The notes beneath the pieces were generated by a model. It did no database searches and was not told where the DNA came from. It saw only the letters and a program-made list of their open reading frames with translations. Shown here piece by piece: positions 9,523 to 10,017 of a DNA stretch of 47,167 nt. This DNA is from a virus (Duplodnaviria; Heunggongvirae; Uroviricota; Caudoviricetes): IMG/VR virus record IMGVR_UViG_2861084961_000002. One strand, written 5' to 3'. A program made the position numbers and the translations under genes. Position 1 is the stretch's first letter. Every line of letters begins with the position of its first letter.

Positions 9523-10017
9523 ATGTCTGATGAAAAAGGAATAATAAGTAGGATTACAGATGCAGTTTCTGGTGCCGGAGGTGCTCTGATGAGTGCTGTT
9601 GGCGCAGTAAAGGAAATCCAGAAAATGCAAATAGACTACTCAGTAAAAGAAAAAACATACGAACTTGTCGATAAGCTCATGGATGCCCAACAGCAGCAAA
9701 TGTCACTTAATGAGCTTTTGATGATTTCTAAGGACAAGATTATTGAGCTTGAAGAAAAGATAAATCGAGCCTCTAAGTGGGAAGAGGAAAAGAAAAACTA
9801 TGAGATGTATACACCTACTGTTGCTACGGTGGTTTATCGTCTCAAAAAATCGGCAAATACCGGTCAGCCAATGCACTATCTTTGCGCTCAATGCTATGAA
9901 TCTTCTGTGAAATCCATACTTCAATACGAAGGATTTGCACCACCTTCTAACCATAGGATGAGATGCCATAGGTGTAACGCCTCCTATCTGTTCCCTAAAT
10001 CTGCATTTTCTAAATAA
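9523..10017 (+). CDS. Hypothetical protein, coiled-coil with C-terminal CxxC...CxxC zinc ribbon; rightward, convergent with N
   Basis: 164-aa ORF from ATG 9523 (track starts at in-frame GTG 9514); purine-rich AAGAGAG upstream; AT-rich; C-terminus [10 protein letters not shown]...[11 protein letters not shown]. Confidence 0.6.

Follow-up and report, generated by a model that had tools for sequence, protein, structure and literature searches.

Which gene lies opposite the early-left operon beside the antiterminator gene N in this lambdoid prophage, on which strand is it coded, and what would it do? We examined these questions in a 47,167-nt stretch of DNA assigned to the Caudoviricetes (IMG/VR record IMGVR_UViG_2861084961_000002), hereafter the window. 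On the plus strand, an ORF of 164 aa plus stop runs from an ATG at 9523 to a TAA at 10015-10017. The mechanical start in the ORF list is a GTG at 9514, and a Shine-Dalgarno-like AAGAGAG run (9508-9514) lies 8 nt 5' of the ATG. The convergent gene on the minus strand is N (Pfam N36, E=2.5e-26), whose ORF spans 10010-10411 with a lambda-type start (MDAQTRR) internal to it. The PGAP annotation of an identical E. coli locus gives N a length of 324 nt (10010-10333). The N stop codon (10010-10012) falls within the last 8 nt of the plus-strand ORF, and the two genes overlap by 8 nt.

We found that the stretch 9523-10017, as judged from sequence comparison, is almost certainly rip1, a single-gene anti-phage defence in the slot that separates N from the other pL genes, antisense to pL. 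Homology and structure searches, which an earlier note on this DNA had proposed, led directly to a solved protein: phmmer against the PDB sequences recovered 9oox_L, "ring interacting pore 1 (Rip1)", 164 aa, with E=1.4e-105 over residues 3-164, and the only difference from that chain was Y96H. The predicted protein also matched Rip1 in its fold. The same note had taken the gene for prophage-expressed cargo; sequence, fold and literature agree with this and identify it as Rip1, a prophage-encoded anti-phage defence. The gene itself is thus already known and characterised, and our main finding is not new.

The solved protein comes from phage HK446, in which the counterpart gene is gp37. The window and HK446 share 163 of 164 residues, the length, the predicted fold, the position beside N and the flanking DNA (positions 9300-10020, 99.4% identical over 721 nt); the same stretch was 100% identical to phage ev099. 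The two phages differ in their backbones, HK97-like in HK446 and lambda/ev099-like with a Nu1-type small terminase in the window, and in an IS3-family element that is present only in the window, about 530 nt upstream of rip1. This element (approximately 7750-9000) interrupts ea10 (DUF2528) and comprises two minus-strand ORFs, orfB (7811-8629) and orfA (8656-8994), with HTH_Tnp_1 and rve transposase domains. The ea10 remnant (9015-9266, minus strand) encodes 83 aa, compared with 122 aa in ev099 and lambda. Since the insertion is absent from ev099, the window represents a related prophage or variant and not that isolate.

The Rip1 family corresponds to PHROG 1244, which is unnamed and includes HK620 HkaP and JBD30 gp30. 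Homologues with 40-92% identity were detected in nine genera (Escherichia, Citrobacter, Edwardsiella, Pantoea, Providencia, Serratia, Proteus, Photorhabdus and Erwinia), which bears out the conservation in related prophages that would be expected of a real gene. In the protein collection, the plus-strand protein formed 29 clusters, the largest with 176 members. Searches of Pfam, NCBIfam and PADLOC-DB 2.0 (2023) gave no significant match and hold no model for Rip1; this reflects when the libraries were compiled and does not weigh against the assignment. HkaP and gp30 share with the window protein the length of 164 aa, the helix plus four-cysteine architecture, the orientation opposite to the flanking lytic operon and an open codon-aligned antisense frame, but they are only about 27% identical to Rip1. 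JBD30 gp30 also differs in lying between the small- and large-terminase genes and not in the early-left operon, the location given in the part of the review that describes it (PMC13434031).

Of the protein features named in the first reading of the sequence, the Gly/Ala-rich N-terminus, the helices and the two CxxC pairs were all recovered. The N-terminal half is helical, with a Gly/Ala-rich segment at residues 13-30 and helices at 39-57 and 62-90 in the AlphaFold2 model, and the C-terminal domain is modelled as beta-rich. The C-terminal half carries the pairs C121-x2-C124 and C148-x2-C151, and all four cysteines were invariant across 21 homologues; the full length and the MSxEKGI start were retained in homologues at 40-92% identity. 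The zinc-ribbon profile Pfam Zn_ribbon_4 matched with E=0.087 and 13.2 bits, below its cut-off of 30.3. The base composition had been described as much more AT-rich than that of the neighbouring genes, and this stood in part: the GC content was 0.40 in rip1 and 0.50 in N, and the contrast held against N and against the IS element, but the ea10 remnant (approximately 0.37-0.38) and a NYN-domain gene beyond N (0.41) were equally AT-rich. Thus, rip1 is more AT-rich than N and not than every neighbour.

The locus is annotated in conflicting ways. The HK446 and PGAP annotations call the plus strand, while RefSeq NC_049953 (ev099) omits rip1 and calls a minus-strand ORF of 88 aa (9703-9969; H3V35_gp46), which is also present in our ORF list. 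In the window, the ATG of this ORF lies at 9969, 10 nt downstream of an AGGAGG, and its stop is the complement of the rip1 sense codon S61 (TCA). The minus ORF shares the codon register of rip1, and consequently its stops correspond to the sense codons TTA, CTA and TCA. Such antisense-stop codons made up 2 of the 25 Leu/Ser codons of rip1 in the window and 33-50% in other AT-rich genes of the window.

We then counted antisense-stop codons among the homologues. In 15 representatives they accounted for 55 of 178 Leu/Ser codons in sense codons 1-66 and for 1 of 184 in codons 67-140. With one representative per lineage (13 lineages, identity down to approximately 28%), the counts were 31/103 in codons 1-52 and 1/122 in codons 67-136 (Fisher p=3.5e-11; binomial p=5.5e-8 even with an assumed background of 15%). 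The boundaries of these regions were at first chosen post hoc, and six more distant homologues, examined afterwards, reproduced the identical pattern. Codon identity at identical amino acids was 0.46 between lineages in the N-terminal part; synonymous sites are near saturation, and the lineages therefore count as nearly independent. We regard this avoidance of stop codons as a real statistical anomaly.

The avoidance was specific to one frame. The other two antisense frames contained 5-10 stops in the same stretch, apart from a single lineage that had 2 in one of them. An overall bias against NNA or rare codons was rejected, since ATA and CAA were unchanged and four-fold NNA codons fell merely from 31% to 20%. 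The conserved Leu columns of the stretch were nearly all CTT and the Ser columns TCT or TCG, and third-position differences between close pairs were about half of those in the N-terminal part. An antisense stop was found at sense codon 58-66 in all lineages but one. Lambda sieB, by comparison, showed no avoidance, with 9 antisense-stop codons spread over the gene.

At the level of the antisense peptide, the evidence spoke against an ordinary antisense gene. The first antisense ATG ranged over sense codons 129 to 165, with one lineage having no ATG, and Shine-Dalgarno runs were found in some lineages only, so that neither the start nor the ribosome-binding position is conserved. Antisense amino-acid identity slightly exceeded the synonymous-shuffle null (0.306 vs 0.273, and 0.302 vs 0.268 in a second test), and the K+R fraction was 0.175 vs 0.124 in the null. 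The conservation z-scores were 3.5-5.1, compared with 2.5-2.7 in a control region that was itself in slight excess. Synonymous codon identity between clades was only 0.53 in the stretch vs 0.46, and the most variable position was still position 3 of the plus frame, equivalent to antisense position 1. Among 5.8 billion proteins, the antisense peptide matched no family and had no homologue beyond the rip1 loci; in the protein collection, the minus-strand protein formed only two clusters, both tiny. An origin of the ORF as a readthrough or frameshift extension of the upstream minus-strand gene was rejected because the frame relation to that gene was random (7 of 19 in frame). Folding of the antisense-strand RNA was not significant. 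Selection appears to act on the openness of the frame rather than on the sequence of a peptide.

These observations allow a tentative reading, which we consider possible but not the likelier outcome, in which both strands of the C-terminal two-thirds of rip1 are used: the antisense frame spanning rip1 codons approximately 62-150 (9703-9969, minus strand) would be a selection-kept ORF on the lytic (pL or late-operon) transcript, in the window translated from the leftward pL transcript downstream of N. The near-absence of antisense stops in a single frame, the codon choice in the Leu and Ser columns, the reduced third-position change and the recurrent terminal stop favour this reading, and in the window the AGGAGG adds a plausible start. 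The unconserved start, the small excess over the shuffle nulls, the modest synonymous identity, the variable third position and the lack of homologues or of a fixed frame relation count against it. The product may be a short basic, hydrophobic peptide, or only the ribosome cover of the RNA may matter. By analogy with sas/esc at P22 sieB, a possible role would be the self-protection of an induced prophage against its own Rip1; another would be to keep the lytic mRNA translated over the opposite-strand insert, as a ribosome "bridge" against polarity on the genes downstream. In P22, sieB is known to be regulated by an antisense RNA (PMC12197685). On the same tentative footing, selection would keep the antisense ORF open throughout Enterobacterales and, probably, also in the phages of Pseudomonas. 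Use of both strands would come on top of the Rip1 explanation, not in its place.

In JBD30, the Rip1 homologue (2498-2992, 164 aa) is flanked by gp29 and terL and runs against the late operon. The antisense frame has no stop anywhere along this gene: it is open from within gp29 and ends 11 nt into terL, which suggests ribosome bridging on a lytic mRNA, although this is a single example at a GC content of 0.55 and therefore weak evidence. To the literature consulted, our analysis adds only the conflict between annotations and the open antisense frame conserved among homologues, and the latter observation may be new.

The RefSeq call, and a minus frame that stays open over sense codons approximately 62-140 in all homologues examined, could also be taken to mean that the 88-aa ORF is the real gene and the plus-strand ORF spurious. 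We consider this extremely improbable. Such an ORF, which the earlier note had envisaged as what might be found in place of the rightward gene, does exist and is annotated in ev099, but it does not replace the plus-strand gene: the plus-strand product has been purified and its structure solved (9oox), which rules out the minus ORF as a substitute. The plus-strand protein is conserved over its full length, including the 60 N-terminal codons that lie outside the minus ORF and form its best-conserved part; the indels among homologues are multiples of three; and differences between close pairs in the plus frame follow the order codon position 3 > 1 > 2. Full-length conservation, this substitution pattern, the conserved N-terminal codons and the solved structure together identify the plus strand as the main coding strand. 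The claim of a genuine rightward gene convergent with N is thus upheld by the ORF, its homologues, the codon-position pattern and the structure.

We next consider the slot. Lambda sieB (34482-35036, plus strand) abuts N (35037-35438, minus strand) in the same arrangement as rip1 and N, so lambda, contrary to the earlier note, does have a counterpart in this orientation: sieB occupies the slot, abuts N and has 58 nt of identical DNA upstream. The sieB of lambda and P22 is an exclusion gene that the prophage expresses; its slot and orientation are those of rip1, with N adjoining and pL transcription running antisense to it. That the gene encodes a divergent SieB-type superinfection exclusion protein is nevertheless very improbable. 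It would fit the position, the orientation and the upstream block, and HK620 hkaP is annotated "putative superinfection exclusion protein", an assignment made by position; but BLASTP showed no similarity between Rip1 and lambda SieB (E=9.4), the two belong to separate PHROGs (1244 and 6399, respectively), and the fold match is to Rip1. Structure and profile comparisons yielded no support for common ancestry with SieB, whose gene also lacks the antisense stop-codon avoidance. The slot is a known one, and rip1 fills it with a different cargo.

The surroundings of the gene are otherwise ordinary. In the window, rip1 is a stand-alone prophage gene flanked on the other strand by ea10 and N, common lambdoid early genes, and the same stand-alone arrangement was seen in 20 other rip1-family loci. 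In nearly all lambdoid loci, the homologue lies opposite the early-left genes and adjoins N-like and cI (repressor) genes; there are two variations, Photorhabdus, where it adjoins terminase genes, and JBD30, as given above.

Upstream of rip1, a 58-nt block (9422-9479) was invariant in an alignment of lambda (sieB), Lambda_2E9 (sieB-like), HK620 (hkaP), HK446 and the window (rip1), and represents a candidate shared regulatory region 5' of the cargo gene. The decamer ACCCCTACAG occurs at 9464-9473 and again at 9498-9507, approximately 34 nt apart. This upstream stretch matched at least 2243 of 5426 complete E. coli genomes, and full-length rip1 of this type was found in 93. Directly 5' of the Shine-Dalgarno run of rip1 lies a hairpin, CCTCTTAC-CCCTACA-GTAAGAG (9491-9513), with terminator-like matches on both strands and a T-run after it on the minus strand; by its sequence it resembles a leftward terminator and is a candidate for one. 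The hairpin was also seen when the leader RNA was folded, but the overall fold was not significant (z=-1.55). Further upstream, on the minus strand, an intrinsic terminator for leftward transcription (9293-9314; 8 pairs, then TTTTTT) aligns to tL2A of HK620 and is its equivalent. A scan of 9300-9522 gave no consensus sigma-70 rightward promoter 5' of rip1, and hexamers picked out by eye were weak candidates, so we infer its expression in the lysogen by analogy. A search of Rfam over 9200-10700 returned no RNA family, and a literature search for a mapped sieB promoter gave nothing usable.

The mode of action is taken from published work. A review (PMC13434031, section 5), a meeting report (PMC12908700) and a further paper (PMC13601566) all cite Patel et al. 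2026, Nature 651:1060. As described in these sources, Rip1 acts as a single protein, encoded by the prophage and without toxicity of its own, with relatives widespread among proteobacterial prophages. Escape mutants map to the portal in Pseudomonas phages and to the small terminase in E. coli phages, 12 Rip1 molecules surround an 11-mer small-terminase ring, the N-terminal part is an amphipathic helix while the C-terminal half contacts the ring, and the complex forms a pore, with dye release from liposomes and premature lysis. The trigger, the stoichiometry, the pore and the abortive outcome come from this literature; the identity with HK446 Rip1, the fold, the family, the slot and the orientation come from the present analysis.

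Applied to the window, this would mean that Rip1 is made in the lysogen and is harmless by itself. When another phage infects the lysogen, twelve copies of Rip1 would, late in the infection, use their C-terminal halves to gather around an oligomeric ring protein of that phage, the 11-mer small terminase in E. coli phages and, according to the escape mutations, the portal in Pseudomonas phages. The N-terminal amphipathic helices would then form a membrane pore, and the cell would lyse before progeny mature. Transcription of rip1 during lysogeny may start at a promoter within or close to the conserved block (9422-9479), and leftward pL transcription through the gene could help to shut rip1 off after induction. 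The resident (Nu1-type) and HK446 (HK97-type) small terminases were both rejected as the trigger in 9OOX, as neither matches any chain of that entry.

We also detected other cargo in the window. A 285-aa NYN-domain protein (10815-11672, minus strand; Pfam NYN 6.8e-09; PHROG 5783) with weak PADLOC matches to HEC-09 and NYN is encoded between N/pL and cI, where lambda carries rexAB, and is probably a second prophage-expressed defence candidate. A gene for a 385-aa Gram-negative porin (18066-19220, minus strand; Pfam Porin_1 E=5.6e-157; GC content 0.44) runs against its neighbours and belongs to the nmpC/lc type, a classic lambdoid moron; its codon-aligned antisense frame is open for an unusually long 298 codons.

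For the annotation of E. coli genomes, in which rip1 is still a "hypothetical protein", the identification has practical value. For the lambdoid phages, the sieB slot beside N is an exchange point in which the unrelated exclusion genes sieB, hkaP and rip1 stand behind one upstream block. Translation of the antisense frame, if it occurs, would make rip1 a rare phage example of an antisense overlap in the same register with evolutionary support, and would bear on how prophages escape killing or operon disruption by their own opposite-strand defence genes.
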